From an uncultured virus (IMG/VR IMGVR_UViG_3300042196_000264) (taxonomy: Duplodnaviria; Heunggongvirae; Uroviricota; Caudoviricetes), in IMG/VR virus record IMGVR_UViG_3300042196_000264: a stretch of 57,894 nt of DNA. One strand, given 5' to 3'. Under the pieces are notes generated by a model. That model was not told the origin of the DNA. It worked only from the letters and a program-made list of their open reading frames with translations, and did no database searches. Both the position numbers and the translations under genes were made by a program. Positions 2,618-49,005 of this stretch are shown here, piece by piece; the stretch's first letter is position 1; each line of letters begins with the position of its first letter.

Positions 2618-2630
2618 GGGCAAGTCACGA

Positions 2631-3383
2631 TCATGCGTCGTCGATGGTCAGCGTAGCCTCGGCCGTGCATCCGGGCCCGTTCGAGACGGTCACGACCACT
2701 GGGCACCCAAGGCCAGGCGAGATGCACTCAACGGTGATCTCGATCTCGGTGTCGGAGATGATAGCTTGCGAGTTCAGGAAGATGCTCCCGTTCGAGCACC
2801 CGGGCACAGAAAGGCTGACGATGGTACTGTCGTTGAAACCTGTGCCGTTGATCGTGACGGTATCGATCCCTCCGCAGACGATGTCGGTGGGGTCGAGGTC
2901 CGCGATCGTGACCGGGTCGCAGTTCGCCTGGTCGCAGCAACACGACCTGATCAGTTTCGGGTAGTCATCTGCGTCGTCTCCGAAGACGAACGAGAAGCGC
3001 ACGATGAGTGGGTCTGGCGTCCCTGACGCACCGATCGCTATGCCCATGAAGGACCCTTGCGGTACGAAGATGCACTCCGGCCGGTTGTAAAGCTGGGTCA
3101 CAAACCCTTGAGCGATGCGCTCAAAGTACAGTTCTGCACCTGACAGAAAGACCAGGCTCGCGATCGGTGGCGTCGGAGACGCGATGATGAGATCACGAAT
3201 GAACCGGTCTCCAATGCTCTGCCGCGTGTCGGAGAACACGGTGTCCACGTCGAACACTCCGACGTTCTCGACCTCGAACTGGTAGATCCCGTTCTGCAGG
3301 ATCGTAGCCTCTGAGAGCGGAGGCGTGAGGGTCGTGCCGTCGACTGCGCCGCTGACGATGTACTGGAGGGTGTAGGTCTGCAT
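2631..3383 (-). CDS. Tandem-family paralog 4 with C-terminal IPT/TIG-like Ig domain
   Basis: MQTYTLQYIVSGAVDG..NGIYQF..GDRFI..FVPQGS..CCC; C-terminus TVTINGTGF...ISDTEIEITV...VTVSN resembles IPT/TIG. Confidence 0.75.
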   Translation of the reverse strand: MQTYTLQYIVSGAVDGTTLTPPLSEATILQNGIYQFEVENVGVFDVDTVFSDTRQSIGDRFIRDLIIASPTPPIASLVFLSGAELYFERIAQGFVTQLYNRPECIFVPQGSFMGIAIGASGTPDPLIVRFSFVFGDDADDYPKLIRSCCCDQANCDPVTIADLDPTDIVCGGIDTVTINGTGFNDSTIVSLSVPGCSNGSIFLNSQAIISDTEIEITVECISPGLGCPVVVTVSNGPGCTAEATLTIDDA

Positions 3384-3386
3384 CGT

Positions 3387-4202
3387 TCAGTCCGCGTTGG
3401 CCCTGAATGCCTGTTTGACGGTGGTGCAGCAGTCGAACTCGCCACTCGTGAGATTGAGCTTGCACATTTCCAGGTCCACCCAGCACGACTCGTCCGACGC
3501 GGTGCACGTGACGTCGAACTGGAACTCGCTGTCTGAAACCTGAACAGCGTTCGAAGGCGTGATCACTGTCGATGCGCATTGCGGAGTGATCGTGAACTGG
3601 ATGAACCCACTCAGGCCGGAGCCGCGCACGGTGATAGTCGGCGTCGTCGCGTTGCAGTTCACGCTGGCTGGGCTGATGCTCTCGATGATCGGAGGTGTGC
3701 AGTCCGAAAAGTTCGAACAGCAGCATGCCGCCAGCATCCTCACATAGTCCTCTGGTGTGTCAGGCTGGACGACCTTGAGCCGGATGTACCCAGGGGCAGA
3801 GAGTCCGCCGAGGAACTGGAGTACGAGTACGTTTGACCCTTGAGGAACGAAGAGGCACGTCTGGTTCGAGAAACTCGAACTCGCGAGAAGGATCTCTTCG
3901 TACGAGCGCCCGTTGCCGTGGTCGATCGCCAGGATCACACCAGCCGTGCCAGGCATGTCGTACTCGATCGCCGTGATGAACCTGTCGCCAGTCGGAGCGA
4001 AGTTGAATCCGGTGGCTGAGTTCCGGATGACGGGCACCTGTGGAGTGACGATGCCGAGGCTCGAGACCACAAACCTGTAGATCCCGTTCTCCTCCGGCGT
4101 GGCCTCATCGGGCTTTCCGGAGCCCACCGGAGTGAAGGCGGGAGCGGGGACCGATGCGATCAGGCTGGTGAGGACCCTGTACTCGAGGCAGTAGGTCTGC
4201 AT
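3387..4202 (-). CDS. Tandem-family paralog 3 with C-terminal Ig-like domain
   Basis: MQTYCLEY..NGIYRF..GDRFI..FVPQGS..CCC; PIIESISP..TITVRGSG..VSDSEF. Confidence 0.75.
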   Translation of the reverse strand: MQTYCLEYRVLTSLIASVPAPAFTPVGSGKPDEATPEENGIYRFVVSSLGIVTPQVPVIRNSATGFNFAPTGDRFITAIEYDMPGTAGVILAIDHGNGRSYEEILLASSSFSNQTCLFVPQGSNVLVLQFLGGLSAPGYIRLKVVQPDTPEDYVRMLAACCCSNFSDCTPPIIESISPASVNCNATTPTITVRGSGLSGFIQFTITPQCASTVITPSNAVQVSDSEFQFDVTCTASDESCWVDLEMCKLNLTSGEFDCCTTVKQAFRANAD

Positions 4203-4211
4203 GTGGATCTC

Positions 4212-5000
4212 TCAGATGCTGGATGTGGTGCAGAAGGCACTCGAGAACTCGGATGCACAGCCAGGTGAGTTGGTGACCATCACGTCGAACGGGCAGTCCA
4301 ACGGCGTTGTACCTCCGCACGTGACCACGAAGGTGATCTCCGTGCTGCTCACGATGGTCACGTCGCTGATCACTACCGTCGAAAACTGGCACAGACCTTC
4401 CGCCGATGCGTTGGAGACGGACACGGATGTGGAGGGCGTGAAGCCAGTCCCCGTGATCGTCACCGTCCTGTCGGCTTCCAATCCTTCGCAGTCAATACAG
4501 GCCGGGGAGCTTGTCCACGAGAGGCTCTCGATGACAGGTGGGCTCGTGCAGCAGCAGCAGCTGTCGATGAGCAGCGCGTAGCTGCTTCCGTCCTCTGCAG
4601 CTCTGAATTGCATGCGGACAACGATCGGCGTGGGCGATACGCCGGCGTCAAAGCCTGTGAGCTTGACCAGGCTTCCCTGAGGGATCGGTACGCAGTTCAC
4701 GAACTGGCTGAGCGTGGTGGTCGGCTGATCGATGATGTCGTAGACGAGTCCATCCGCTACGAGCGACACATCGCCTCCGACAGGGGCGTTGGGGCTCTTG
4801 ATGATCAGGTTCGTCATGAACCTGTCGCCCATTGAGCCGATTTCGCCGTCGTAGCTCGGGTCGATGAGTCCCAGGTCGGACACTTCGAACTGGTAGATCC
4901 CGTTGGAAAGGACCGTCGCATCGGACAGGGGCGGCGACGGCGTCACCCCGTCCAGCTGACCGGAGACGCGGTACTCTACGGTGAAGGTCTGGAGTCCCAT
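4212..5000 (-). CDS. Tandem-family paralog 2 with C-terminal IPT/TIG-like domain
   Basis: LQTFTVEYRVSGQLDGVTP..NGIYQF..GDRF..IPQGS..CCCC; PVIESLS..TVTITGTGF..VSSTEIT..DVMVTN. Confidence 0.75.
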   Translation of the reverse strand: MGLQTFTVEYRVSGQLDGVTPSPPLSDATVLSNGIYQFEVSDLGLIDPSYDGEIGSMGDRFMTNLIIKSPNAPVGGDVSLVADGLVYDIIDQPTTTLSQFVNCVPIPQGSLVKLTGFDAGVSPTPIVVRMQFRAAEDGSSYALLIDSCCCCTSPPVIESLSWTSSPACIDCEGLEADRTVTITGTGFTPSTSVSVSNASAEGLCQFSTVVISDVTIVSSTEITFVVTCGGTTPLDCPFDVMVTNSPGCASEFSSAFCTTSSI

Positions 5001-5007
5001 GTCGGGC

Positions 5008-5571
5008 TCACGGCACGAACGCGGTGAAGACGTTGTTGAGCGAAGCTGTGCAGCAGAACGCCTGCTGAATGAGCGCCTCTTGCTCTTCGGTCTGGGGCGT
5101 GAACACCTGGAACCGGATCACGTAGGGCTCCAGACCAGGATCCTGCAAGCGGACGAGTTGGAGCGCCTGGCCCTGCGGGACGATGAACCCCCTGCGTGAG
5201 TACGTCTGCCCGTCGCTGACGAGGGTGATGAACTCCGGGTTGAGCGCATCTGGGACCACCTGACTGGTCAGGTACGCGCAGGGTCGCGCGGCGGATCCGG
5301 CTGGCCCGGGGGCACCGACCTGACTCGAGAACTGGAACCAGGTGATGTACCGGTTCCCGATCGTCGTGGGCGGGCTCAGGACCGTGTTGCTGATCTCCGC
5401 GAGGTCGATGACGCCGAGGTTCCCGGCGATGTCGAACCTGTAGATGTTCTCGGGGTCCGCCAGGGGTGGCCCCTGGTCCGTGGCCGTGTTGCGGAAGGCT
5501 GGCGCGGGCGTGACCCCGTCGAGCTGTCCGGAGACCGTGTACTGGAGGCAGAAGCTCTGGAGGGCGCTCAT
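5008..5571 (-). CDS. Tandem-family paralog 1 (shared N-terminal domain only)
   Basis: LQSFCLQYTVSGQLDGVTPAP..NIYRF..GNRYI..IVPQGQ..IRF..FCC, ends shortly after the CC motif. Confidence 0.75.
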   Translation of the reverse strand: MSALQSFCLQYTVSGQLDGVTPAPAFRNTATDQGPPLADPENIYRFDIAGNLGVIDLAEISNTVLSPPTTIGNRYITWFQFSSQVGAPGPAGSAARPCAYLTSQVVPDALNPEFITLVSDGQTYSRRGFIVPQGQALQLVRLQDPGLEPYVIRFQVFTPQTEEQEALIQQAFCCTASLNNVFTAFVP

Positions 5572-7312: not shown

Positions 7313-8344
7313 TCACCTCCATTTCTGATCGAAAAGGTCGGAGCGGACCATGTCGCTCACGAGTTTCTCGAAGGTCGTCGTCGGCTTCCACCCGAGCGCA
7401 GAGCGGATCGTAGACGTCTCGCCGCGGAGCACGTCGACCTCGGAGGGTCTGAAGTAGCGCGGGTCGATCTCGACGAAGTCATCGACCTCAGGGAGGGTGA
7501 ACCCGTAGCTCCGGACGCAATCGGCGGCCGCCTCGAGGAACTGGCGGACGCTTCGGGTCTCGCCCGTGGCCACCACGTAGTCTCCCGGTCGGTCGGCCTG
7601 GAGCATCGCGTGCATGGCCACCACGTAGTCCCGCGCGTGTCCCCAGTCCCGCTGGGCGTCGAGATTCCCGAGGAAGAGCTTCTCTTGCAGCCCGAGGGCG
7701 ATCTTCGCGATGGCAATCGTGATCTTCCGCGTCACGAACGTGGGGCTCCTGCGCGGGGACTCATGGTTGAACAGGATCCCGTTGCAAGCGAAGAGACCGT
7801 AGGCCTCGCGGTAGTTGACGGTGGCGTGGTACGCGAACACCTTCGCGCATCCGTAGGGGCTCCGTGGATGGAAGGGCGTACCGAGCCCCTGGGGAGGTGG
7901 GCTCGAGCCAAACATCTCTGAGCTGGAGGCCTGGTAGAGCCTGGGGCTCACCTTGTGGTGGTGGGCGTAGTTCTTGACCGCGTCGAGCACCCGGAGGGCC
8001 CCGAGGCCGGTCGTATCCCCGGTGTAGATCGGCTGGTCGAAGGACACCCGTACGTGGGACTGCGCCGCGAGGTTGTAGACCTCGTCCGGCATCGTTTGCT
8101 CCAGGATCTCGCGGAGGCCAGAGGCGTCGCTGAGGTCGCAGAAGTGAAGCCTCAGACGCGTCTCGGGGTGCTCGAGCGGGTCCCGGTACAGGTGGTCGAT
8201 CCTGCCCGTGTTGAAGCTCGATGACCTTCGTATCGTGCCGTGGACCTCGTATCCCTTGTCGAGCAGTAGCTCCGCGAGGTAGGATCCATCCTGCCCGGTG
8301 ATCCCGGTGATGAGGGCGCGCCGCAAGCGGAGGAACGATGGCAT
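7313..8344 (-). CDS. gmd: GDP-mannose 4,6-dehydratase
   Basis: [65 protein letters not shown]. Exact start uncertain. Confidence 0.97.
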
Positions 8345-10350
8345 CACCCATCCAGAAGATCAAGATCAAACGGGAGGCCAAGCGGGCCGTTCGTGCGTGG
8401 CGCATGCAGAAGATGAGCCCGACTGCGCCGGCCATGAGCAGGGCGAATGCGCCCTCGGTGCGGCGCTTTGCTCCAGGTACGCCGGTCGTGCCGCTGCATC
8501 CGCTCGTCCCGGACATCGAGTCGGATGTCGAAGTCTCGGTGATCTTTGGAACGTACAACAGGTTCAGGTCGCTCCGCAGGTGTGTGGACTCCGTGCGTGC
8601 CGCCTGCCTCGGGATCGCACACGAGATCATCATCTGCGATGGTGGATCCACAGATGGCTCGCTCGAGTGGCTCGAGAAGCAAGGTGACATCATCACGATC
8701 CACGGCGGACTAGATGGCGCTGTCAAGGCGTTCAACGCGTGCTTCGAGATGGTTCGCGGTCGGCACACGCTGACGCTCAATGATGACATCGCGCTCTCAG
8801 AGCCAGCCGTGCGGAACGGACTCGTCCACATGGGCGACCCCTATGTCGGACAGGTCGCCTTCGCGTTCGGATTCCCTGGCCATCCATCTGGGCTCCTGGA
8901 CTTCCATGGCGCCGCGTACCTCAACTACGGTCTCACACGAACGGGCCTTGCGCGCGCGATAGCAAAGTGCAGCGGTGGATTCTGGGATCCAGTCTACTAC
9001 ACGTACGGCGGCGACACAGAGTTGTCGATGTGGGTCAGGAGGCTCGGTTATAGCGTGGCCCGCGGTACCACCAGCACCCTCGTCGACTTTCACGACGACG
9101 ACGCTCTGCGGGCACGGAGCCACCACGTAGAGCAAGGCAGGTCAGTCACGATCTTCTACGCGAGATGGCCTGACGCCAGGTTCCTGACCTTCCGCGGGCC
9201 CATGCCCAAGCTTGGAGCCGCAGAGGTTCGGGCACTCTCGAAGCTAGAGCAGGGGCCGCTGCCTCAGGAGAGGTGGGAGTGTCTCAAGTCTGCGGACCCG
9301 AAGGTTGGAGATCTGCCAGTTTCGGTCGACCCGTCCCCCGAGCGCGTTCTGCACGTCTACATCCGCACCGATGATGACCCACAAGCCTCCATGGCTCAGG
9401 CCTTTCGTGAGATGGGTTCTCGTGGGTTCGCGTCGGTGGACTGGTTGTCGATGCCACCACACGCGCGAAACTCGGCCTGCCTCAAGGCGTCTGCCACTAT
9501 TCGCCCGACGCTCGTCTTCATGCAGATTCAGTCTCCTGACGCGATCGCCATCGAGACGATCCGTCAGATCCGGATGGACCCACAGCGGGACCCCGGATGC
9601 GTCGTCGTCCTGTGGTCAGGTGACGTGGGGCCCGTGAACGGTCCGTGGCCAGGACTTCAGGATGCGTGGAGCCACACCTACGCGAAGGTGGTGGATGCCA
9701 TGCTCTACACTGGGACCGGGCAAGTCGAGATCCAAAGGTCACGTGGCATGCTGAACGCTGCTTATCTCCAGATCGGCTTCGATGAGTCAAGATACTACCC
9801 GAGCTCAGATCCGTCATCCTACGGAACCCTGCATGACGCCGTGTTCCTGGGGCAGGACTACGGAGACCAATGGGCCTGTGTGCCAGACAACGACGTCGCG
9901 TTGAGGCGGAGGGTCGTAGAGGCCTTTGCGTCCGAACTCCCGCGCTTCTGCGCCTACGGAGGTGGGTGGGGGGCAGGGTATCTTCCACAGAGCCGCGCTG
10001 GTGACATCTACCGTGGGTCCCTCCTTGCGCTCTCCACGAGCCTGGTCTCGAATCTCGGGCGGTACACCAGCGACAGGATGATCCGCGCGATGGCCTGTGG
10101 AACGACCACGCTGGTCAAGCGTTTCGCGGACATGGAGGGCATGGGACTCGAGCACGGCAAAAACTGCCTCGTCTGGGACACTCCAGCGGAGGCAGTTGAT
10201 CTCGCCCGACACTGGCTCTCGCCGCAGCGGCGGGATGACCTCCTACAGATCGGACGTGCCGGGGCCAAGCTCATGAAGGAGCGTCATACGTGGGGCGTCA
10301 GGATCCGAGAGCTCGCCTACATCGTCAAGAAGCTTCGAGGCTGCCGATGA
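8338..10350 (+). CDS. Two-domain glycosyltransferase (GT2/GT-A plus C-terminal CgeB-like GT-B domain)
   Basis: [26 protein letters not shown]-terminus [30 protein letters not shown]. Start may be further downstream. Confidence 0.85.
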
Positions 10351-11426
10351 TCCCTATCTCCATGCCAGATCTGTCTGGCAACGAAGAGTCCTACGTCGTG
10401 GCAGCCATGAGGAGTTCGTGGATCTCTTCCACGGGTGAGTTCATCGACCGGTTCGAGTCCGAGTTCGCTGAAGTGTGCGGGGCGAAGTACGCCCTCTCCG
10501 TCTGCAACGGGACCGTGGCCCTTCACCTGGCCATGCTCGCCCTGGACGTTCGCCCCGGAGACGAGGTCATCGTCCCAGGCCTGACCTACATCGCGGCTGC
10601 AAACGCCGTGCGCTACGTCGGTGCTGAGCCTGTGTTCGTGGACGTCGACCCGGAGACCTGGTGTCTGAACCCGTCCCTGATCGAAGAGAGCATCACCACG
10701 AGGACCAGGGGGATCGTCGCCGTCCACCTCTACGGTCACCCCGCCGACATGGACCGCATCAACCACATCGCAGCGATCCATGGACTCTGGGTCGTCGAAG
10801 ACGCGGCCGAGGCCCACTTCGCGCGCTACAAGGATCGTCCCGTCGGGGGGCTCGCTAGGATCGGGACGTTCTCGTTCTATGGGAACAAGATCATCACCTG
10901 CGGAGAAGGTGGTGCAGTTGTGGTCTCGGATCCGCAGCTGTACACGAGGATGAAGACGCTCAGGGGTCAGGGAGTGGATCCTGACCGCAGGTACTACCAT
11001 CCGGTCACGGGGTACAACTTCCGTCTCACGAACGTTGCCTGTGCGATCCTGTGTGCGCAACTCGAGCGCGCAGCCAGCCTCATCGCCGCGAGAAGAAGGG
11101 TATTCGAGAGCTACAGCCAGCGTCTCGAGGGGAAGGTCCAACTCCAGCCCAGGGCCTCATGGGCGCAACCAGCCCCTTGGCTCTTCTCCATGCTCGCCGG
11201 GAACAGAGACGCGGTCGCGGACCGTCTCCGTGGCGCTGGCGTTGAGACCCGACCGTTCTTCGTGTCCATGGAGACTCTGCCGCCCTTCCGCGAGTCCTCC
11301 CTGAAGCGCAGGGCCCATCTGATGGAGACGGGGCGCCTCTCCAGGAGCGGGCTGAACCTGCCGACCTACCCACAGCTGACCGAGGAAGAGATCGGCATGA
11401 TCTGTGATACGATCGTCTCCGGATGA
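10347..11426 (+). CDS. DegT/DnrJ/EryC1 PLP aminotransferase, GDP-perosamine synthase-like
   Basis: WISSTG, NGTVALHLA, VHLYGHP, VEDAAEA, FSFYGNKIITCGEGG, GYNFRLTN. ATG 10347 overlaps the upstream stop. Confidence 0.92.
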   Translation: MIPISMPDLSGNEESYVVAAMRSSWISSTGEFIDRFESEFAEVCGAKYALSVCNGTVALHLAMLALDVRPGDEVIVPGLTYIAAANAVRYVGAEPVFVDVDPETWCLNPSLIEESITTRTRGIVAVHLYGHPADMDRINHIAAIHGLWVVEDAAEAHFARYKDRPVGGLARIGTFSFYGNKIITCGEGGAVVVSDPQLYTRMKTLRGQGVDPDRRYYHPVTGYNFRLTNVACAILCAQLERAASLIAARRRVFESYSQRLEGKVQLQPRASWAQPAPWLFSMLAGNRDAVADRLRGAGVETRPFFVSMETLPPFRESSLKRRAHLMETGRLSRSGLNLPTYPQLTEEEIGMICDTIVSG

Positions 11427-12373
11427 GCGACGCAATCGCGGACGGGCACAACGCGATCATGGAAGCGGTTGGTCGTTGCCGACCGCCTGTCGTTGTGGTT
11501 GAGATGCTCAGGAACTTTGGGGACGTGCTTCACTCCACCATCGTCGTGAGGCACATCAGGAAGACTGAGAGTTCACGTGTTGTCTGGGCGATCTCGAGTC
11601 GTTACGTCGAGCAATTCATACACTTCCTGCACGACGAGCTCGGGCCTCATGAGATCGCCGGACTCCCTGACCTTCCTGCATACCCCAACGACGCATCCGG
11701 TCGGATTTCCTGGGTAGAGGAGGCCAGGAACATCCGTGGGGTTGAGAGAGCATTCGGATGTGGCGTGCACCCGTGGGGATGGAGGTCTGGGTCGATCGTC
11801 GATGCCGTACTCGAGAACGCGGGGGTGCGCTCTCTCGCTGTGGAGAGAACCCCGTGGCTTCCGCTAGGTGAAGAGGAGCGTTCGTGGGCGCGTGTGTTTC
11901 TCGCAGAAAGAGGGATCTCAAGGTTCATCGCCGTCGAGCACGAGGCTGAGTCTGTGACCGGCCTGACGGATGACTTGCTGAGGATGGTATCAAGAAGATC
12001 CAAGATCCCCATGCTCATCATCGGTGCAAAGTCGTCAAGGATGGTCCCTGGTTCTGTGGATGCGAGAGGGATCAGCTTCCTCCAGGCCAAGTCGCTGATC
12101 TGTACTTCGTCGCTATTCTTAGGCTGCGCAAGCGGTCTGAGCGTGACGGCGGCGTCCAACGGATGCCTGGTGCCCGTGGCCGAAGTGGCTGAGCCTTCGC
12201 TGTGCATGGACGCGATCGGATACCTTTCGCCTGGACGTAGCCACATCAAAGTTCGTGGCATGTCCGCGCGTGAGCAGTGTTCTGAGATCCTTGACATGAT
12301 CTGCGCGCCAGCGGCTCAGGCGATGAGAACGTCTCGTAGATCTGCGGTTCTCAGAAGGAGGCATCGTCGATGA
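11423..12373 (+). CDS. Putative GT9 (heptosyltransferase-like) glycosyltransferase
   Basis: RNFGDVLHST near the N-terminus; LIC..SLFLGCASGLS near the C-terminus. Confidence 0.65.
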   Translation: MSDAIADGHNAIMEAVGRCRPPVVVVEMLRNFGDVLHSTIVVRHIRKTESSRVVWAISSRYVEQFIHFLHDELGPHEIAGLPDLPAYPNDASGRISWVEEARNIRGVERAFGCGVHPWGWRSGSIVDAVLENAGVRSLAVERTPWLPLGEEERSWARVFLAERGISRFIAVEHEAESVTGLTDDLLRMVSRRSKIPMLIIGAKSSRMVPGSVDARGISFLQAKSLICTSSLFLGCASGLSVTAASNGCLVPVAEVAEPSLCMDAIGYLSPGRSHIKVRGMSAREQCSEILDMICAPAAQAMRTSRRSAVLRRRHRR

Positions 12374-13098
12374 AGTGCAAGTGCCCATGCTGCGGAGGTG
12401 AATCGCACGAGGCGTTCTCGAAGACCGTGTTCAGGAGGTACACGGCTTCGTACATGGAGTGCTCATCGTGCATGACACTTTGGGTGATGAATCCGGTGTG
12501 GCTCAGCGATTCCCACGTGGATTATGTGGGCGCGGACAAGTCAGATGGAGGTGCCACGTGGAGAAGCGCGATGGTGAAGGAGGCCTTGCTCGAATTCTTC
12601 TCTTCGAGACGTGGGCCGTGGCTCGACTACGGGTCTGGATCTGGTCACCTTTCCAGGATGCTTTCGTCATCCGGAGTTGAGATGCTCAACTACGATCCGT
12701 ACAGAGGAGTCGACCAGTCTGGTGAAGGAAAGTTCTCCGTGATCTCCTGCATCGAGACCGTCGAGCATGTCTCCAATCCAACGGCACTCATCTCTGAGAT
12801 CTCGAGGAGGCTTGACGACGATGGAGTGCTGGTCATGAGCACGTGCCTGAGAGTCACGGGAGTCCACGGTGAGGCATGGAGCTACCTCGCTCCGGAGTTC
12901 GGGCAACACGTCACGTTGATGACAGAGGCCGGCCTGGCCTCCGCAGCACGAGCAGCTGGGATGGTGGCTCTTGGGAGATTGGTGTGCTTGGAGAACGAAG
13001 AACTCCAACTCCATGTCCTAGCCATGGATCATGTCATTGTGAGGTTGTCTAACGCGGGGTCGTTCAGGTGGGAACCCTACTTGAACTCGATCCTGTAG
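12370..13098 (+). CDS. Class I SAM-dependent methyltransferase with N-terminal Zn-ribbon
   Basis: CPCC..CSSC, LDYGSGSG, IETVEHV.NP, WSYLAP..GQHV. Confidence 0.85.
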   Translation: MKCKCPCCGGESHEAFSKTVFRRYTASYMECSSCMTLWVMNPVWLSDSHVDYVGADKSDGGATWRSAMVKEALLEFFSSRRGPWLDYGSGSGHLSRMLSSSGVEMLNYDPYRGVDQSGEGKFSVISCIETVEHVSNPTALISEISRRLDDDGVLVMSTCLRVTGVHGEAWSYLAPEFGQHVTLMTEAGLASAARAAGMVALGRLVCLENEELQLHVLAMDHVIVRLSNAGSFRWEPYLNSIL

Positions 13099-13520
13099 AT
13101 CGAGTTGTCTCCTTCTCTCCGAACCCACTGATACCCAAGAGCTACGTACATCGAGAATGCGGCAATGTTCTCGTCGTGAACCTTGAGATCGACTCCTGGT
13201 CTGCCCCTCAACCGTACGGTGCAGTGTAGGACCTCCATCATGGTCATCCCAATACCCATGCGTCTCGAGCCCGGGTGCACAGCGATGCCAAGTCGTGGCA
13301 TCTCGTACTGCGGCGGCCATCCACGAAGTATCCCGTAGGCTAGGATTCGCCTGTCGACCATGACGTACGCGCACCAGGATTCCTCCATGGACACGCGGAG
13401 GACATGATCTGCATCGAACGGATGTGGCCTGAAGTGTTGACTCTTAGGGTCGGCTTCAATGTCGACGAAGAAAGCAGCAAGGGCTTCCCTGTGCGAAGGC
13501 TTGAGTTCAACGATCTCCAT
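13077..13520 (-). CDS. GNAT family N-acetyltransferase
   Basis: LGIAVHPGSRRMGIG (motif A), VHDENIAAFSMYVALGY. Confidence 0.88.
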   Translation of the reverse strand: MEIVELKPSHREALAAFFVDIEADPKSQHFRPHPFDADHVLRVSMEESWCAYVMVDRRILAYGILRGWPPQYEMPRLGIAVHPGSRRMGIGMTMMEVLHCTVRLRGRPGVDLKVHDENIAAFSMYVALGYQWVRREGDNSIYRIEFK

Positions 13521-13933
13521 CAGTACGTCTTGTGCTGCTCGGCAACGACGGCCGTGGTTTCACCGGACGTCACGGAGGCGAAGTGCTTGTCGATGGCGTC
13601 CATGAGGCGTGACCTCTGGACGTTGAGGTCACATGCTCGCGCGATGAGCTTTCGGAGTCCGTCGAGGTCTTCGGCGTAGACCTTGACGAACTCATCGTGC
13701 GGCATCCTGCGGATCGCGTAGAGCACCTCCTGGTTGTGCCACATCTTCAGGCTCACGGTGCACAGCTTGTCGACGAGGCTTCCGAGTGTGTCCATGGGTA
13801 CGGGCTCGTGTTTGTCGTCCAAGTCGAGACGTGTTGCAGATGTAGATAGCCTGGGGAGGATCTTCGTCTCCCATTCCATGCGATCCCCTGCGCATGGGAT
13901 GAGCCCGAGGGCGGTGGCGTCGAAGTCGTTCAT
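13520..13933 (-). CDS. DUF4254-like protein
   Basis: TLGSLVDKL...KMWHNQE...LNVQRSRLMDAID. Confidence 0.6.
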   Translation of the reverse strand: MNDFDATALGLIPCAGDRMEWETKILPRLSTSATRLDLDDKHEPVPMDTLGSLVDKLCTVSLKMWHNQEVLYAIRRMPHDEFVKVYAEDLDGLRKLIARACDLNVQRSRLMDAIDKHFASVTSGETTAVVAEQHKTY

Positions 13934-14670
13934 CGTACAACCTCTCTGAGACGATCGATCATGGCCGTTATGCTCGGTGCGTAGGTGATGTCGCGCTCGT
14001 CCCAGATCGGGCAACCTAGCGGATGACCTGCGACGATCCGCGGGAGACGACCGCGGTTTTTTGCGGTGAAGCTGGCCACGGTGACACTGCTCAGCCGCGA
14101 GATCATCGCGATGCAGTTACCGCTCAGAGCAGACAGCGAGAGAAGGTTGTGGTCGCTGCGGTCGACCATGTTCGGCATCCAGTGTGGGTCATCGAGCCTT
14201 CCGGACAGGTAGAACGTCATGGCGTGGAACTGCATCGCTATTGCTTTCAGCCATCCGTTGATGTCCTGCACCGGCTGTCCGGAGAGTACGGGTCCGTTCT
14301 CCACGAGGATGCCGGGGCGGTCGCGGTTCTCCACGATGGGCAGGTCAATGGGAGGAGCGTCGATGTGTGCGATCTCAGGCAAACCGAGTGGGCGGGCTTG
14401 GATGTTCCAGGACTCGACTTGTGTTTCATGTGTGAGTCCGTGGCGTCCCATGACGCCGTCGACATGACCGAACCACAGGTTGATCGCGTGTGGCTCTCCG
14501 GTCTCATCCCAGAAGGGGATCCCCAAGTCCATCCAGAGGTATCGGTAGCGCGGGGCGCAATCGAGCTCGACACGAACGGTGTCGCGCAGGAGCGGCCAGA
14601 CGCGCCTGATGATCTCGCGTGTCATGATGACGTCGCCAGCGTGAAACTTGTTCGTGAGTACGACGTGCAC
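13930..14670 (-). CDS. Hypothetical protein, possibly glycosyltransferase-related
   Basis: HAGDVIMTR N-terminal motif; located in the glycosylation cluster. Confidence 0.55.
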   Translation of the reverse strand: MHVVLTNKFHAGDVIMTREIIRRVWPLLRDTVRVELDCAPRYRYLWMDLGIPFWDETGEPHAINLWFGHVDGVMGRHGLTHETQVESWNIQARPLGLPEIAHIDAPPIDLPIVENRDRPGILVENGPVLSGQPVQDINGWLKAIAMQFHAMTFYLSGRLDDPHWMPNMVDRSDHNLLSLSALSGNCIAMISRLSSVTVASFTAKNRGRLPRIVAGHPLGCPIWDERDITYAPSITAMIDRLREVVR

Positions 14671-14725
14671 GGTTAGCCATCATGCCATGGTGAAAGGCGT
14701 ACGACGCGCGAGTCCTCGGTGCCGT

Positions 14726-15686
14726 CTTGGATCTTCGTGTGGGTAAGCCATGGTGTTTAAGCCCGTGCACGCAGCATAGCCTGGATCTTCGTGTGAAGAA
14801 GAAGCGTGATGAGACCACGCCCGGTGTCATCGCAAACGACCCGGAGCATCCATCCTGGATCTTCGTGTGAGGAAGTCATGTGCTGCGACTGGCGGACTTC
14901 AGGCAGGTGTGGACGGTAGCATGCGCCCTGGATCTTCGTGTGAGAAAGAAGTGTGCTGCAAGTCCGGGGGACCGAGTTGTTTGCCCGCCGGATTTGCCTG
15001 GATCTTCGTGTGAGGAATATGTGTGCTGCAAGGGGAAAGCATCGTCCACGAGTACAACCTGCTGATCCCTGGATCTTCGTGTGAGGAAGATGTGTGCTGC
15101 AAGTTGTCGCGGCTGCGACCCTCGGGGTCGCAGAAGGGGCCTGGATCTTCGTGTGAGGAAGAAGTGTGCTGCAAGGGTGTGGCCCATGAGCTTGGGATAC
15201 ATGCTGACCGTGGTCCTGGATCTTCGTGTGAGGAAGAAGTGTGCTGCGAGAGCGAACCCAACTACGCCCGTAGCGGACCGGTGCGGGCCTGGATCTTCGT
15301 GTGAGGAAGAAGTGTGCTGCAAGATCTTGCGGAACCGAGATCTGTGCGATGCCGTGTGTCCTGGATCTTTGTGTGAGGAAGATGTGTGCTGCAAGTCGAA
15401 CTCTGCATCGGGACCGCCAAAGAGATCCTTCCTGGATCTTCGTGTGAGGAAGATGTGTGCTGCAAGCTTGACCTGCTTCCCGCTGTTCGCCACCAGGCCC
15501 GGATTCCTGGATCTTCGTGTGAGGAAGATGTGTGCTGCAAGTGCGAGCGCCGGTTGTGCGCACGCGATACGACTCACTCCTGGATCTTCGTGTGAGGAAG
15601 ATGTGTGCTGCAAGCCGGCGCTCTGGGTATGCGTATTCCAGCCTGACGTGCCTGGATCTTCGTGTGAGGAAGATGTGTGCTGCAAG
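14726..15686 (-). CRISPR. Cas-less CRISPR array: 14 repeats of 36 bp (three distal ones degenerate), 13 spacers
   Basis: + strand consensus CCTGGATCTTCGTGTGAGGAAGATGTGTGCTGCAAG starts at 14726, 14780, 14854, 14927, 14997, 15068, 15140, 15215, 15288, 15360, 15431, 15506, 15579, 15651. Unique spacers are 34-39 bp (distal one 18 bp). Internal palindrome ATCTTC-N7-GAAGAT. Degeneracy increases leftward, so the leader is placed on the right. Confidence 0.96.
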
Positions 15687-15738
15687 GGGACCCCCTGTCG
15701 CTACGCTGGCATGGTGCTGGGACCGTCGGCACTTGCGC

Positions 15739-15768
15739 ATCATGGCACGCGGGGCTAGGGCGCGTCAA
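15739..15768 (-). promoter_or_regulatory. Putative sigma70-like promoter of the CRISPR leader
   Basis: Minus strand TTGACG-N18-CATGAT with an extended -10 TG, about 50 bp before the first repeat. Confidence 0.5.
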
Positions 15769-15800
15769 CGTCCGGTCTTGCGTGCTAGTGCAAAGGCTCG

Positions 15801-16559
15801 TCACTGGTCGTGGTCTCGATGCATGGATCCACGAAGGCTATCTTCGCCGCCGATATGAGCGAAGGCGCCAGGGTCGAGTTGGACAACCCGAAGTCCAAGT
15901 GCGTCGAAGTTCATCTGAGCACCGCGTTCACCGGCCACAGGAGTGGCGTCGCATCCGAAGATCCTTGGTACGTCCACGGCTCGTATCATGTTCGGATTGA
16001 AGGTGTAGTGGGCGTTTCCACTGATCCAGTGCTCGTTCGCACGGATCCATCCGATACGATTCCCCGTGATGCAGTGGTTGTTCATGACGGGTTCTGAGTA
16101 CCGTCGGAGGCGTACCTGCCCGACCCTGGGGTTGCCGAGGTAGTGAGCCGCCGCATGAACCCACTGGGAGTCTGCACAGCAATTCCAGTCGTCCTCGAGA
16201 TGAAGGATCCATGGCAGCCCGACTTCCTCCGCGATCGCAGCGGCCCTGACCATCAGCCCCGTGACCGCGGGTCCGATGGGTACCACCGCATTGGCTGCCC
16301 CATTCTTGGCGAGGTAGACCTTCCGGAAAGCATGCTGATTCAGGATCTCTTCGCTGTGTTCATCGCGACTGTTCAACATCGCTACACCAACGATGTCGAA
16401 GCCACGGTTGGCGGTGTGGTTTCGCAGTGACTCGAGTGTCCGCGCGAGGAGCTTCGGCCGACCTCCGCATAGAACGGCAAGCACGACTCCCTTGCACGGC
16501 GGAGGGTCAAGCAGGTCCGGCTTCCGCATGGCGGCGCGCAGTTGGCTGGCCGTCGTCAT
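15801..16559 (-). CDS. GT-A fold glycosyltransferase
   Basis: GRPKLLARTLESL, WILHLEDDW, YTFNP, FAHIG. Confidence 0.75.
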   Translation of the reverse strand: MTTASQLRAAMRKPDLLDPPPCKGVVLAVLCGGRPKLLARTLESLRNHTANRGFDIVGVAMLNSRDEHSEEILNQHAFRKVYLAKNGAANAVVPIGPAVTGLMVRAAAIAEEVGLPWILHLEDDWNCCADSQWVHAAAHYLGNPRVGQVRLRRYSEPVMNNHCITGNRIGWIRANEHWISGNAHYTFNPNMIRAVDVPRIFGCDATPVAGERGAQMNFDALGLRVVQLDPGAFAHIGGEDSLRGSMHRDHDQ

Positions 16560-18481
16560 TTCTCCGCCTCCTCGGTCCATGGCAAACCAATCTGCGCCGT
16601 TCTCTGTCGGATGAGAGTTCCGTAAGACTCGTTCAGTTCGCAACCTATCCACTTGCGTCCGAGGCTCTCGGCCACAGCACCCGTGGTCCCAGAGCCCATG
16701 AATGGGTCCAGCACGGCACTGCCGATCTTGGAGCCGGCGAGGATGCAGCGCTCGGCAAGTCTCGACGGCATCGTGGCAAAGTGTGCCCCGTTGTATGGCT
16801 GAGTGGCGATCGACCAGACTGATCTGGCGTTTCGTTTCTCGCGGGCCCCTACCTTCAGCAACCCACCCATCGTCCGATGGGTATCATCACCGCTTTCGTA
16901 TCTGTCCACACCTCGGTGAGTGATGTTTCCTGGTGCCTTGTTGGTTGCCTGTTCTGCGATCGCATCGGCGTCGTAGTAGTAGCGCTCCGATTTCGACAGC
17001 AAGAACACGTACTCGTGTGACTTCGTCGGACGATCCTCAACAGATTCTGGTTTAGGATTTGGCTTCGAGTTGTGGGTAAGAATGCCGGAGCTGAGTGCGA
17101 ATAGGTGCGGATCATCCTCGACACCAACGTCGTAGACTTGCCGGCAGCGCGCCTTTCGGATCTCAACGACCTCTTCGGCGTCCTTCTCGTTCCAGTGTCC
17201 CGACCGCTGAAACCGAATCTCGCCACGGAACGCTGGCCACTTCTTGCCGAAGCCGTCCGCCATTACCGGAGACAGGACCAAACGGAATCCGAGACGTGCG
17301 GACAGCACCCGGAGGTCGCGCTCGAGGTTGTAGTTCCGGGTGAACACGATCCGCCATCGTTCGTTCTTTGCGTCCCAATGCCCGTCGCCAGCGAGGTACC
17401 CGTCAAGATACGCGCGAAGGAAGTCGTTGCTGTATCGCCAGCACACCGTGGCGAGGCACTTGTCCTTGGCGGTCCGGCCAGACACCAACTCAGCGATGAT
17501 GGCAACAATCAACTTGCCGTACACCCGGATGTTCTGTTTGTTTCCGTCCGTCGTGTAGGTCGCCGTGCCTCCGTAGGACTGGGCGACACTCAACACCCGG
17601 TTGAGCCTGTCCGTCTCGCTGGCGTTGCCGGCGATCTGGATCGTGTCCTCGCTCATCGAACCTTCCGCCAAGTACAGGCCCGCTAGCCAGGCGGCGTCGT
17701 TACCAACGTGGGCCGGCGTCTTCGGCGCGTCTGGTTCCGGAAGGGTCACCCGCTGGAGCGTGTGGCCTACCTGGATCTCGTCAGCGCGGAGCAATCCGTG
17801 AGATGTCGGGAAGCGATGGTTAGGGGTGCAGGCGATCCGCTCGCCGCTGCGGAGTACGAGTTCCAATTCGTCCGCCTTCCGCGAGGTCCGCGACCAGCCG
17901 AGCACCTGCGTCCACTTTTGGCCGTTCCATAACTTCACCGTGGCCGGGTTCAGCCGAGCTACGTCTTTGACCGTGATCGGCATGTCTCCCTTCTGCGTCC
18001 GGGCGTAAACGACCGTTCCGCCCGACAGGCACCATATGATGTCACTGCGCAGGTACCAGCCGTCGTCTCGGAGTGCGAGCGCAACCTGCCATGGTATTCC
18101 GCAAATGTCCTTCGGCTTGAGTCCGGGTGCGATTTTGCTCGGGCTCTTGCTGTACACGCCGGCCCTTGCCACTTCTCGGTCCAGGAAGGCCGAATTCTTA
18201 CCCATGCCACCACCCGCCGAGCTCGCGTACGAGTCACCAAGATTGAGCCACACCGTTCCATCATCACGGAGGGCGCGGCGCACGAGCCGGAATACGTCGA
18301 CAAGGGATTCGACGTATTCCGAGGGTGTAGGCTCCATCCCGATCTGATCTGGATGTCCGTAATCACGGAGTTTCCAGTATGGTGGCGACGTCACGCAACA
18401 CTGGAACAGGGACTCCGGGAGTTCCTCGAGCGTTCGCCTGCAGTCGCCAATGAGCATTCGATTGAGAGAGAAGTCACCCAT
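16556..18481 (-). CDS. N4/N6 DNA methyltransferase (beta class) interrupted by an intein
   Basis: TSPPY, LKPKD, WYLRSDIIW|intein|SKPNP.PES.EDRPTKSHEY, HFATMP, VLDPFMGSGTTG. Confidence 0.93.
   Translation of the reverse strand: MGDFSLNRMLIGDCRRTLEELPESLFQCCVTSPPYWKLRDYGHPDQIGMEPTPSEYVESLVDVFRLVRRALRDDGTVWLNLGDSYASSAGGGMGKNSAFLDREVARAGVYSKSPSKIAPGLKPKDICGIPWQVALALRDDGWYLRSDIIWCLSGGTVVYARTQKGDMPITVKDVARLNPATVKLWNGQKWTQVLGWSRTSRKADELELVLRSGERIACTPNHRFPTSHGLLRADEIQVGHTLQRVTLPEPDAPKTPAHVGNDAAWLAGLYLAEGSMSEDTIQIAGNASETDRLNRVLSVAQSYGGTATYTTDGNKQNIRVYGKLIVAIIAELVSGRTAKDKCLATVCWRYSNDFLRAYLDGYLAGDGHWDAKNERWRIVFTRNYNLERDLRVLSARLGFRLVLSPVMADGFGKKWPAFRGEIRFQRSGHWNEKDAEEVVEIRKARCRQVYDVGVEDDPHLFALSSGILTHNSKPNPKPESVEDRPTKSHEYVFLLSKSERYYYDADAIAEQATNKAPGNITHRGVDRYESGDDTHRTMGGLLKVGAREKRNARSVWSIATQPYNGAHFATMPSRLAERCILAGSKIGSAVLDPFMGSGTTGAVAESLGRKWIGCELNESYGTLIRQRTAQIGLPWTEEAEK
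17069..18031 (-). mobile_element. Intein (321 aa) with LAGLIDADG homing endonuclease
   Basis: Starts CLSGGT; block B TPNHRF; motifs WLAGLYLAEGS and YLDGYLAGDG; block F VYDVGVE; ends ILTHN followed by Ser. Confidence 0.93.
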
Positions 18482-18492
18482 GCCCCATGGAC

Positions 18493-19353
18493 CTACTTCC
18501 TGCTGCTGCGGATCGATGCCCGAGCCCAGTTGGCGTTTCGCTTCATACCGCGGCGCACTTCGAGGCGTTTTGCGGCTGCCTGCTCTGGGGTGAGCGCGAA
18601 CTGTCTGGCCACCCCAGGGAAGTCCTGCGGGTAGCCGGTCTTCACCTTGTTGTTCGGCTTCGCGGGAACCTCCCAGAGACAGGCGTGCTTCGCGAGTGGA
18701 CTATGCGGGCTGTGGAAGAGCCGAGTGTCCTTCCCATGAACATAGAAGTCGATCGCAGACCCCACGTCGATGCAACTCGGCACCGTCCTGCCTGCGTCAG
18801 CCGCTGCCTTCCAGTACCTGTAGGCGATGATGCAGGCCACTGGACCTGCGGAGAGCAGGATCGGCTTGTCCTGGGCGAGAAGCTTCAGGACCAGCGCATC
18901 TACGTCGAAGCGTTCGTTCACGCCGTTCTGTGGCACCTGAACGTCGCCACGACCAGACGACACGACGACGACCTTCTTGCGATGGATCTGGTCCAGGAAA
19001 AGTCGCCGCGCCTTGCCGTAGTTGGCGTTCTGGAAGATCGTCGCGAACGTGCGCTGGTGAGGCGACGTCGTGACGTGCTTCGAGAAGAACTTCGTCGCCG
19101 GCTGAACGCAGCACGGCGGAGAAGTGGCTACGCCGTATCCTGGAAGAGCCGAACACAAGGCCTGGAGCAGTGGCTCTACGAGCCACGACTCCTTGCCTGG
19201 AGAGGCCTTCCAACCCGAGGCCATACGCTTCCGCTTACCCTCGAGCACCGCGTGTTCACCGTCATGAAATCGCGCGAGGGCGAACGGCTCGCCCTCCGTG
19301 ACCATCCTCGAAATTTCGGCGAAATCGAGGTCGAAGTGGCGCCTGAACCTCAC
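18493..19353 (-). CDS. GT-D fold (DUF1792-like) protein
   Basis: PFALARFHDGE, LLSAGP, IDVGSAID. Confidence 0.65.
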   Translation of the reverse strand: MRFRRHFDLDFAEISRMVTEGEPFALARFHDGEHAVLEGKRKRMASGWKASPGKESWLVEPLLQALCSALPGYGVATSPPCCVQPATKFFSKHVTTSPHQRTFATIFQNANYGKARRLFLDQIHRKKVVVVSSGRGDVQVPQNGVNERFDVDALVLKLLAQDKPILLSAGPVACIIAYRYWKAAADAGRTVPSCIDVGSAIDFYVHGKDTRLFHSPHSPLAKHACLWEVPAKPNNKVKTGYPQDFPGVARQFALTPEQAAAKRLEVRRGMKRNANWARASIRSSRK

Positions 19354-20459
19354 TCCGGTGAACCCTCGGCCGCGGGCTCACCCGCAGTGACCGGAGGGGA
19401 CTCTTCGGAGAGGAACCGCCAGCCCTGATCGCGGTACCACGCGATCGATCGTGCCTGGCTCTCGCCGATGCCAGCAGCGTTGTGGAGAGCGGTCTGGTCG
19501 ACGGCGACAGACTTGGTTCCGCCCGTATCTCCCTGGTAGGGGAGCACGACAGTCTGGATCCCAAGAGCCGCTGACAGATGCAGGCCCCATCCGAAATTTC
19601 GGTCGACGGCCCTCGGGGTCGTCACCGCGACGGAGAGCCAGGAGCGCTTCAGCACCCATCCCTGCATGCCGAAGTCCACGAGCGACGTCTCGGCGAGCTT
19701 GCTGTTCGGACCTCCTACGGACTCCGGAACGCCGTTTGCTGCGTAGCGGATCCCGCTGACGGCGACGATCTTGTCGTTCTTGGCCTCGGCGACGGCAGCC
19801 TCGAGCCACTTCGGCTCGACGATGACGTCGTCGTCCAGGATCGCCACCACCTCGGCGTCTGCCTCGGCGGCCATCATGAACCGCGGCCACGGCCCCCAGT
19901 TCAGGTTCGAGCGAACCGTGATCATGGTCGCGAGCACCTGCTCGTCCAGGACGGCGGCGCCGGGGTTCACCCAGCACATGATCGCCTTCGGGCGGATCGT
20001 GGATTCCTGGATCGCGGTCACCTGTGGTCGGAGAAGCGTGGGGCGGTTCCACGAGCAGAGCACCACGACGAGGTCCGCAGGAGGCGGCGGCTGAACCTCC
20101 GGTGGCGGCTGGACATGCCGTGTCGTGATCACGAGTCCGCCGGTCTGCGTCTGCGACACTGGCGGCGCGATGGCGGGAGCCGGTGCGGCTTGCATGGGTT
20201 GGGGGCCGCCGGGGACCTGATACATCGGGGCTGAGGTGATGGGTGCTTGCACCTGGGGGACGATGGGCACATGGGTCACCCTGTTCGTCACGTGCGGCTG
20301 CGCTGCGGCCGGGCCGGGAAGCGGGCGTTGGGGCATGTACGGTTGCCCACCGACACTGACGTTGATCATGCCGTTGTGCGGCATGGCGCCTTGTTGAGAG
20401 GCCCACATCGCCTCTCGCGCGGCTCGGGCTTCGGGACTCTTTCGCTTGCCTGGGATCAT
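19350..20459 (-). CDS. GT-A glycosyltransferase with Pro/Gln-rich N-terminus
   Basis: VVLCSWNRP, SNLNWGPWPRF, AILDDDVI. Confidence 0.7.
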   Translation of the reverse strand: MIPGKRKSPEARAAREAMWASQQGAMPHNGMINVSVGGQPYMPQRPLPGPAAAQPHVTNRVTHVPIVPQVQAPITSAPMYQVPGGPQPMQAAPAPAIAPPVSQTQTGGLVITTRHVQPPPEVQPPPPADLVVVLCSWNRPTLLRPQVTAIQESTIRPKAIMCWVNPGAAVLDEQVLATMITVRSNLNWGPWPRFMMAAEADAEVVAILDDDVIVEPKWLEAAVAEAKNDKIVAVSGIRYAANGVPESVGGPNSKLAETSLVDFGMQGWVLKRSWLSVAVTTPRAVDRNFGWGLHLSAALGIQTVVLPYQGDTGGTKSVAVDQTALHNAAGIGESQARSIAWYRDQGWRFLSEESPPVTAGEPAAEGSPE

Positions 20460-20475: not shown

Positions 20476-21402
20476 TCAGGGACTGGTTGGCGTTGGCTGA
20501 TCTTCGCACGGTTTCACCGTGCCGAAAAGATCGATCTGTTCTCTCGTGCGCAGGAGCCTGTCGGTGGCGGTCTGGAAGTAGCCAGGCTCGATCTCCCAGC
20601 CGAGGAACCTGCGGCCCAGCGAGATCGCAGCCACTCCGGTGGTTCCGCTCCCCATGAAGGGGTCGATGATGAGGTCGCCGCGGTTGGAGAAGTCGCGGAT
20701 CAGCTGTTCGATGAGCTTGAGTGGCTTGGGACAAGGATGGTCGGGTCGGTTCTTGCCCTGCTCAGTGGGGTACGACCACTTCGCCGATCGACCTCCTCCA
20801 TTCCACTTCCCGCTCTTGTGGTGGATAACGATCGTCTCGTGGGCTTGAGCAGGTCCCTGTCCGTTCAGCTGCGGCGTGGCGTTCGTCTTGTCCCAGATCC
20901 CCGTTCGGAAGTACGTCCGCCTGTCGATCTGCTGCCAGAGATGAGCCTCCTCCGCGCTGGAGAAGAAGATCGCCCACTTCCGTGCGATCCGAAGGCACTC
21001 GAGCCCGGCGTTATGGAGCGCGATGACGGACAGTCCGCAAAGCCTTCGCTCCTCTGGGCGAGAACCGAGCGACCTCGCTCCGGCGAGAACACGATCGTGG
21101 TACGGAGGATCCGTGAGCACCGTGGCACCGTGGCCGTCTGGCACGGATGGCATGCCATCCGTAGGGTCCATGCAGTCGCCACAGACGACCTCCCACCCAG
21201 GCCCACTGGCCTTGACGAGAGCCATACTCGCCGTGGCTTTCGAGAAACGGGAATCGGAGCACGCCTTGTGCTTCGGCTTGTGCTTCGGCTTCGGCTTCGG
21301 CTTCGGCTTCGGCTTCGGCTTCGGCTTCGGCTTCGGCGCAACCTTCTTCGAAGGTGAGCTTTTGTCCTTCTTCGGCTTCTTGGTGGATGGTTTCTTGGTC
21401 AC
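20476..21402 (-). CDS. N4/N6 DNA methyltransferase with Lys/Pro-rich N-terminal tail
   Basis: GDCMD, TDPPY, HPCPKP, IIDPFMGSGTTG. Confidence 0.88.
   Translation of the reverse strand: MTKKPSTKKPKKDKSSPSKKVAPKPKPKPKPKPKPKPKPKHKPKHKACSDSRFSKATASMALVKASGPGWEVVCGDCMDPTDGMPSVPDGHGATVLTDPPYHDRVLAGARSLGSRPEERRLCGLSVIALHNAGLECLRIARKWAIFFSSAEEAHLWQQIDRRTYFRTGIWDKTNATPQLNGQGPAQAHETIVIHHKSGKWNGGGRSAKWSYPTEQGKNRPDHPCPKPLKLIEQLIRDFSNRGDLIIDPFMGSGTTGVAAISLGRRFLGWEIEPGYFQTATDRLLRTREQIDLFGTVKPCEDQPTPTSP
21283..21336. repeat. (CTTCGG)9 hexamer tandem repeat encoding (PK)n
   Basis: Nine perfect copies, plus degenerate copies to the left. Confidence 0.95.
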
Positions 21403-34049: not shown

Positions 34050-34232
34050 ACTTGTGACCACAACATGTAGTGGTCGCAAGTCCTGGACCACAAGGGCCGG
34101 CGCCGCGAGGATCAGGATCCTTGATCCTCGCGGTGCCGAAGCGTAGCCTCCCTGGTTCCCGGACGAGGGGCAGCCTCGCCGGGGACCGTCCTCTGGGGGC
34201 ACCGGGCATGGGGTGCCTGGTGCCCCCAGAGG
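34050..34232 (+). ncRNA. Putative structured RNA/leader: four consecutive hairpins upstream of the helicase
   Basis: Stems at 34050-34081, 34098-34138, 34154-34187 and 34190-34232; non-Watson-Crick pairs in the stems are G.U on the + strand. Confidence 0.5.
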
Positions 34233-34267
34233 GCCTCCTCTTCGCTGCCACAGCTTGTGTACCCCCC

Positions 34268-35893: not shown

Positions 35894-35894
35894 G

Positions 35895-38720: not shown

Positions 38721-38764
38721 GGCCGGTGAATATCCCGGCCGGGGACCCCGTCTGAACCTGCATG
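38721..38764 (+). promoter_or_regulatory. ECF-like promoter cassette, copy 1 (44 bp identical to 39312-39355)
   Basis: TGAATA-N16-CGTCTGA-N6-ATG. Confidence 0.7.
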
Positions 38765-39311: not shown

Positions 39312-39355
39312 GGCCGGTGAATATCCCGGCCGGGGACCCCGTCTGAACCTGCATG
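39312..39355 (+). promoter_or_regulatory. ECF-like promoter cassette, copy 2
   Basis: Identical 44-bp direct repeat of 38721-38764. Confidence 0.7.
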
Positions 39356-48999: not shown

Positions 49000-49005
49000 C
49001 CCAAC

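Follow-up and report, generated by a model that had tools for sequence, protein, structure and literature searches.

An orphan CRISPR array in a 57,894-nt stretch of DNA from an uncultured virus, hereafter the window, has as its newest spacer a sequence that matches the element's own primase gene in frame at 31 of 36 positions. The structure of the mismatches suggests that the spacer and its target are diverged versions of the same coding sequence. With moderate confidence, we propose that the spacer derives from the primase gene of a related, distinct element and that the array acts in trans in the exclusion of one such element by another.

The orphan array and its genomic context

The array occupies positions 14726 to 15686, with the minus strand as its likely transcribed strand, and consists of 14 repeats of 36 nt each (consensus CCTGGATCTTCGTGTGAGGAAGATGTGTGCTGCAAG). 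Between these lie 12 full spacers, all different and 34 to 39 nt in length. The earlier note had counted 13 spacers; twelve of these stand as full spacers, and the remaining one is an 18-nt remnant that sits between the two most degenerate repeats. The locus thus displays the near-identical direct repeats and unique spacers of similar length that generally characterize CRISPR arrays, and 11 repeat copies with at most 3 mismatches occur in the window, against 0 expected from shuffled sequences. Read from 14726 to 15686, the repeats depart from the consensus at 11, 7, 5, 2, 1, 0, 1, 2, 1, 1, 0, 0, 0, and 0 positions, such that 4 perfect repeats are found among the 5 copies closest to 15686. This is the polarity typical of arrays, with conserved repeats at the leader end and a degenerate terminal repeat at the opposite one, and the decay toward 14726 places the trailer at the left and the leader from 15687 onward. 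With the leader on the right side, the spacer at 15615 to 15650 is the newest one; its leader-proximal position, claimed in the earlier note, is therefore borne out by the gradient of repeat decay.

The 114 nt that separate the first repeat from the stop codon of the minus-strand gene located upstream (15687 to 15800, minus strand) constitute a putative leader. A sigma-70-like promoter-like site with a TG extension (TTGACG-18-CATGAT; 15768 to 15739, minus strand) is directed into the array and is the sole such site between 13800 and 16800, where shuffled sequences give a mean of 0.6. Further, all ORFs that we took as genes between 13930 and 23137, using our own GC3-based selection, lie on the minus strand. 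The repeat decay, the orientation of the flanking genes, and this one, weak promoter-like site together suggest that the array is transcribed leftward, i.e., from the minus strand. A 6-bp hairpin can be formed by the repeat on either strand, and it is not significant relative to shuffled sequences. The spacers have a mean GC content of 0.63, the same composition as the element itself, and a coding-like 3-base periodicity of 0.35, compared to 0.37 for 36-mers from the window and 0.23 for shuffled sequences.

Scans with Pfam (32 and 42 ORFs), PADLOC (44 ORFs), or both, covering 66 distinct ORFs in the window, revealed no cas genes. As the 57.9-kb window covers only about one half of the 119,894-nt contig, cas genes may be located outside it. 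No tracrRNA-like anti-repeat was recovered in the window either, the best complement of any 24-nt repeat half (16 of 24 positions) being judged a chance similarity. The full 36-nt repeat is absent from IMG/VR viral contigs; its 20-nt hairpin core is absent from 185,579 GTDB species genomes and IMG/VR viral contigs; and a pattern made from the two repeat ends is absent from the same GTDB genomes, JGI metagenomes, and IMG/VR viral contigs, with the limit that these pattern searches were exact and diverged repeats would escape them. In Rfam CRISPR-DR, the repeat was unmatched both at the gathering threshold and at E values of up to 10, and BLAST searches with the array against GenBank phages and PLSDB plasmids gave no repeat match. 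The sole BLAST match of the array, 27 nt in a Halorussus plasmid (E value of 0.2), was taken as chance. By these sequence comparisons, none of the collections searched contains this repeat family, and its cognate Cas proteins might accordingly also be new.

The array is embedded in a cluster of genes for glycan biosynthesis and modification (7313 to 20459), an unusual cargo for a phage-like element, which codes for a GDP-mannose 4,6-dehydratase, a two-domain glycosyltransferase, a DegT aminotransferase, an S-adenosylmethionine (SAM) methyltransferase, and GNAT and GT2-like proteins. The best non-self match of the GDP-mannose dehydratase is 76% identical, and its few named matches come from unrelated phyla. 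Directly upstream of the leader is a GT2-like gene (15801 to 16529, minus strand), whose start we took to be at residue 42 of the ORF at 15801 to 16652; its nearest Atlas clusters score 0.97 and are 86 to 100% viral (Uroviricota), with 20 to 25% of their members containing a Glycos_transf_2 domain. Just downstream of the array trailer is a gene for a protein of 246 aa (13930 to 14670, minus strand) with no PADLOC or Pfam match. A search recovered 40 relatives of this protein, and Methyltransf or Glyco_transf domains adjoin in 10 of the 11 that were scanned; given these fusions to methyltransferase and glycosyltransferase domains, we rejected a Cas role for this neighbor. Also on the minus strand, an N6/N4 DNA methylase ORF of 641 aa (16556 to 18481) is split by an intein with a LAGLIDADG homing endonuclease domain, as recognized by the Pfam models Intein_splicing and LAGLIDADG_3.

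Several features of the window point to the nature of the element as a whole. A collagen-like protein with a long G-X-Y run of the GATGPT type (83 overlapping copies with 9-bp spacing) is encoded at 3 to 1853 on the minus strand; running off the start of the window, it is probably tail-fiber-like. Phage-like genes occur on both sides of the array, and their products also include an SLT transglycosylase and an amidase; next to the D5 primase, a Gp3-like factor and a helicase are encoded, and an RyR-domain protein and a PHROG nucleoside deoxyribosyltransferase are also found. We further count as pointers to a phage the three DNA methylases, the paralogous ORFs at 1760 to 5571, and the occurrence of 49 distant relatives of the primase on IMG/VR contigs. 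The window contains no capsid, portal, or terminase genes. On the basis of its sequence, the carrier of the array is probably a large tailed-phage-like mobile element, and the peptidoglycan hydrolases suggest a bacterial host.

We also noted several features at a distance from the array. Between 1760 and 5571 on the minus strand are five consecutive ORFs of 187 to 287 aa, one with an IPT/TIG domain, and four of the five have common conserved blocks of 49 to 64 nt at their 5' ends; they look like a paralogous family, possibly of fiber or receptor-binding proteins. Two more orphan DNA methylases are encoded at 20476 to 21402 and 47280 to 48719. The 5' part of the latter ORF is overlapped by a tRNA-Thr gene (GGT; 47427 to 47504, minus strand), which suggests that its true start probably lies downstream of the tRNA. 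An intergenic motif of about 45 to 55 nt recurs at 38721 to 38775, 39312 to 39366, 48971 to 49015, and 50209 to 50263, in each case ending at an ATG directly 5' of a small plus-strand ORF, and a 168-nt segment is duplicated with 93% identity at 39420 to 39587 and 49352 to 49519. The motif and the duplication may represent a promoter or leader common to a small family of paralogous genes. A DUF6036/AbiEii-like nucleotidyltransferase encoded at 54022 to 54618 (plus strand) is possibly a component of a toxin-antitoxin or abortive-infection system.

The newest spacer and the primase gene

The primase-helicase matched by the newest spacer is a protein of 913 aa (P0001; 35895 to 38636, plus strand). 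It displays the arrangement of the D5/P4-type enzymes, with a D5_N domain (E value of 7e-18, residues 441 to 599) followed by a P-loop helicase domain (DUF5906, 2e-11, residues 634 to 749), in addition to a match to Pox_D5 (9e-4); a 98% identical relative (P0002) is named a P4-family primase by one source. The spacer, read as the reverse complement of 15615 to 15650 (minus strand), is CAC GTC AGG CTG GAA TAC GCA TAC CCA GAG CGC CGG, and it aligns at 31 of 36 positions with the stretch at 36474 to 36509 on the plus strand (residues 194 to 205 of the primase), which thus constitutes an imperfect self-protospacer. The site, 20.9 kb from the array, lies in the N-terminal part of the primase, directly past a conserved MRIPGFD stretch, and is flanked by GCCTGGACTT on the 5' side and TACACGCT on the 3' side. 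Because position 36474 is a codon boundary of the ORF, the match is in frame, the site reading HVKLEYAYPERR in the window and HVRLEYAYPERR in the spacer. As an observation apart, the 5' flank at 36465 to 36474 (CCTGGACTTC) is similar, except for one missing T, to the beginning of the repeat (its first 11 nt, CCTGGATCTTC). The two stand in a relative orientation opposite to that of the spacer, and the similarity is probably due to chance.

The five mismatches fall at 36479, 36481, 36485, 36494, and 36497. Four are synonymous differences at third codon positions (GTC/GTT, CTG/CTT, GCA/GCT, and TAC/TAT in the spacer and the window, respectively), in which the window always has T, and the fifth (AGG in the spacer versus AAG in the window) is a conservative R/K exchange. 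Chance was rejected as the cause of this match, inasmuch as the best match anywhere in the window for 300 shuffled versions of the spacer ranged from 20 to 25 of 36, with none exceeding 25. In a six-frame peptide comparison, the newest spacer scored 63 against a null maximum of 39. The match and the character of its differences as given in the earlier note, including the four synonymous changes and the K/R exchange, are accordingly confirmed. By our own calculation, at least four of five random differences would fall at third positions with a probability of about 0.045. Such codon-structured mismatches suggest that the differences arose in a translated gene rather than through decay of the spacer in the array, and from their sequences we regard the spacer and the target as diverged orthologous coding sequences.

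Among 5.8 billion protein clusters, we found just three close relatives of the primase. P0002 (JGI), with 98% identity to the window's protein, has the same site peptide as P0001 (HVKLEYAYPERR) and agrees with the spacer peptide at 11 of 12 residues; P0003, from a 66-kb Logan contig (82% identity), has PVRLEYAYPDRR and agrees at 10 of 12; and P0004 from ENA (59% identity) has RVRLQYARPDLR and agrees at 7 of 12. The Arg of the spacer also occurs in P0003 and P0004, and its His and Glu occur only in the window lineage. This distribution places the likely source of the spacer near, but outside, the clade of the window and P0002, or else in the ancestor of that clade, and by protein identity we estimate the source element to fall between P0002 (98%) and P0003 (82%). 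At the peptide level, the carrier's own lineage is the closest one known to the spacer, which counts against a separate source. The claim that the spacer came from a diverged version of the primase is supported by these results: the match is in frame, four of its five differences are synonymous, the other is a K/R exchange, and the Arg is the residue seen in P0003 and P0004. To judge by these sequences, a perfect protospacer is impossible in any known lineage (P0001 to P0004).

The earlier note had gone further and proposed that the carrier's primase was recoded to escape its own guide, pointing out that T is unusual at third positions in this GC-rich gene. The latter statement is numerically right, as T-ending codons account for 8.4% of the 913 codons of P0001, with a GC3 of 82%. 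However, the cluster of T- or A-ending codons at the site already includes the three codons that precede the protospacer (CCT GGA CTT), and of the 902 windows of 12 codons in P0001, 38 contain at least four T-ending codons, forming five separate clusters. Moreover, positions with rare codons differ most readily from any relative, and T at every synonymous mismatch is therefore also expected under plain divergence.

Metagenomic relatives of the region bear on the same question. Seven sequencing runs contain the region, and contigs of four of them were aligned to 35800 to 37300 at a likeness of at least 80%. One from another metagenome (X2) is a 3,853-nt contig that spans this entire stretch with 19 differences over 1,501 nt (1.3% divergence). 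None of the 18 differences listed of these 19 falls within 36474 to 36509, the nearest being at 36416 and 36536, and the differences reproduce substitutions of P0002 (10 synonymous and 7 not). A 151-nt contig from a further metagenome (X5; 36407 to 36557) is identical to the window; for the other two (X4 and X6), no piece among those listed extends across the site. Hence, X2 and X5, the only contigs covering the site, have the same 31/36 version, which implies that the five changes predate the split from X2. Synonymous divergence between the spacer and the window amounts to 4 of 11 synonymous codons, whereas X2 and the window differ by about 10 synonymous changes over 500 codons. Given that the T cluster extends upstream of the site, that such clusters occur elsewhere in the gene, and that X2 and X5 are unchanged at the site, deliberate recoding of the primase is not supported.

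Searches for a better target gave no match within their respective scopes. A codon-degenerate pattern for the site had 0 matches in IMG/VR viral contigs and JGI metagenome contigs, two collections that do not contain the window's own contig, as the spacer itself would otherwise match the pattern. A single-protein search recovered no close primase relatives from IMG/VR viral contigs; an alignment-based search of the same contigs retrieved 49 distant primase loci, all with at most 37% identity, and none of them contains the exact spacer. Likewise, none of 255 candidate short partial proteins covered primase residues 150 to 260. No perfect protospacer, nor any better than 31/36, was found in any collection searched. 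For the other 11 full spacers, the best matches in the window reach 22 to 24 bases, which is the chance level, and no target for them emerged from the window, the peptide comparison, or BLAST searches against GenBank phages and PLSDB plasmids; the inner 33 nt of the spacer at 15542 to 15578 had 0 matches in IMG/VR viral contigs. A target can thus be identified for only 1 of the 12 full spacers, too few to support a general preference for siblings. In the peptide comparison, the spacer at 14816 to 14853 narrowly exceeded its null maximum (42 versus 41) with a match antisense to the helicase gene at 34070 to 35893 (plus strand), which was judged to be chance.

Proposed exclusion of relatives and competing explanations

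On the basis of the above observations, a mechanism can be conceived in which the newest spacer originated in the primase gene of another, related member of the element's family. The array would be transcribed leftward from the leader at 15687 to 15800, and its transcript might be processed by Cas proteins supplied in trans, either by the host or from the rest of the contig. The resulting crRNA would have the same sense as the primase mRNA, so that only the template strand of the DNA would be open to pairing, which points to an effector that targets DNA. Wherever the carrier already resides in a cell, such an effector would destroy incoming relatives with the exact protospacer, and the carrier's own mismatches would reflect ordinary divergence of its lineage under purifying selection.

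Counted from the repeat-handle end of the guide, the carrier's mismatches are located at positions 6, 8, 12, 21, and 24. In effectors with a 5' handle, the seed comprises guide positions 1 to 8, and in type I complexes every sixth guide position remains unread. With reading of the type I kind, the carrier's effective mismatches would therefore be those at positions 8 and 21. The five mismatches probably spare the carrier, which is plausible and would depend on the kind of effector. On its 5' side, the site is flanked by CTT where the end of the repeat has AGG at the corresponding place, and one imperfect site yields no PAM.

Alternatively, the element, or its host in acting on it, might have obtained the spacer from an ancestor of the present genome, and the lineage would then have survived through synonymous and conservative changes in its own protospacer. 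The five changes do leave the primase protein almost unchanged, the rare T codons of the window stand at four synonymous sites where the spacer's codons are nearer to the usage of the gene, and the Lys of the window lineage is derived relative to the Arg of P0003 and P0004; in the proposed orientation, this Lys change lies at guide position 8, and another change lies at position 6, both near the handle end, where effectors with a 5' handle have their seed. Yet a single change in the seed or PAM is normally enough for escape, and here five are spread over positions 6 to 24. The remaining support weakens on account of the T-rich cluster, which continues three codons upstream and has four counterparts in the gene, and of rare codons being the likeliest sites of difference between any two relatives. 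The contigs from X2 and X5 have the same site, so that the changes are older than that split, and the local synonymous divergence is far deeper than that between X2 and the window. We therefore consider escape from a self-spacer unlikely. More doubtful than probable, though deserving greater weight than escape, is the possibility that the array arose in a host chromosome as a defense against this phage family and reached the element through recombination, or that it is a decaying relic; in both cases, the primase match would be a historical trace without present function. There are no cas genes within the 58 kb, the array lies inside an unrelated glycan gene cluster, its trailer half is visibly decaying, and 13 spacer units are long for a phage-borne array, for which Al-Shayeb et al. 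(PMC7162821) give a median of six repeats. Against this, the four perfect copies among the five leader-side repeats suggest maintenance, the repeat occurs in no genome of the GTDB species set, and both a promoter-like site and neighboring genes in the same orientation are present; even a captured array directed against the family would still exclude relatives, given host Cas proteins.

Two other readings assign the array a different role. Guides with a partial match can repress without cutting, and a partly matching crRNA might bind the carrier's own primase gene in this manner and tune its replication. Repression by effector-less phage systems is also raised in PMC7162821. The mismatch pattern is nevertheless that of a diverged coding sequence rather than one expected from a designed partial match, the target is found 580 nt into the ORF instead of at a promoter, and no effector was found; we regard regulation of this kind as very improbable. 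It is also conceivable, if quite unlikely, that the array is part of a CRISPR system not yet described, with its effector encoded in the other half of the 120-kb contig, and mediates kin discrimination, in which guides against the element's own family of replication genes force synonymous divergence of the primase where a lineage bears the array; if true, this would be equivalent to a speciation barrier that CRISPR imposes on large phages of bacteria.

Relation to known arrays on mobile elements

Exclusion of relatives in trans, the reading that we prefer, has its closest precedent in the portogloboviruses SPV1 and SPV2, which carry virus-borne mini-CRISPR arrays without cas genes and with spacers against close relatives; as described in the account of these arrays by Medvedeva et al. 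(2019, PMC6858448), the orthologous loci of the carrier bear point mutations or deletions. The present array is similar in lying on a probable mobile element with a leader in front and no adjacent cas genes, in having a spacer against its own family with the carrier's site mutated (here by five mismatches in 36 nt), and in the proposed role, namely, exclusion of close relatives. It differs from those of SPV1 and SPV2 in having 12 to 13 spacers rather than 1 or 2, in its probably bacterial host, as opposed to an archaeal one, indicated by the peptidoglycan hydrolases, and in a repeat that matches no known host array. Further, a reciprocal partner bearing a 100% protospacer did not emerge for it, and a target was recovered for only 1 of its 12 spacers.

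A second precedent comes from the huge phages, some arrays of which are devoid of interference or adaptation genes, may use host Cas proteins, and target other phages, as set out by Al-Shayeb et al. (2020, PMC7162821). Shared with these are the large phage-like element, its origin in sediment or soil metagenomes, the compact array lacking visible cas genes, and a spacer directed at a core gene that belongs to another phage-like element. In that study, use of host Cas proteins was deduced from shared repeats and targets had 0 to 1 mismatch, neither of which was found here, and in contrast to the 200-kb class of the huge phages, the present contig is about 120 kb. Orphan CRISPR arrays that may use host Cas proteins in trans are similarly described for plasmids by Pinilla-Redondo et al. 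(2021, PMC9071438). These resemble the present array in being orphans on a mobile element, here a probable one, in the suggested reliance on host Cas in trans, and, as we count it, in their bias toward targeting other mobile elements. Unlike in the carriers of those plasmid arrays, the gene content here is phage-like (collagen-like fiber, SLT, amidase, and Gp3-like factor), and the window contains no conjugation or partition module.

Conflict between mobile elements by means of orphan arrays has thus already been described, and the present array adds an instance of it, not a new principle. If active, it would represent a bacterial, multispacer counterpart of the archaeal mini-array system, in which a large phage-like element arms its host against the element's own relatives by way of a catalytic primase domain. 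The perfect target and the 31/36 target would then offer a natural pair for measuring how much divergence is needed for the safety of the carrier.
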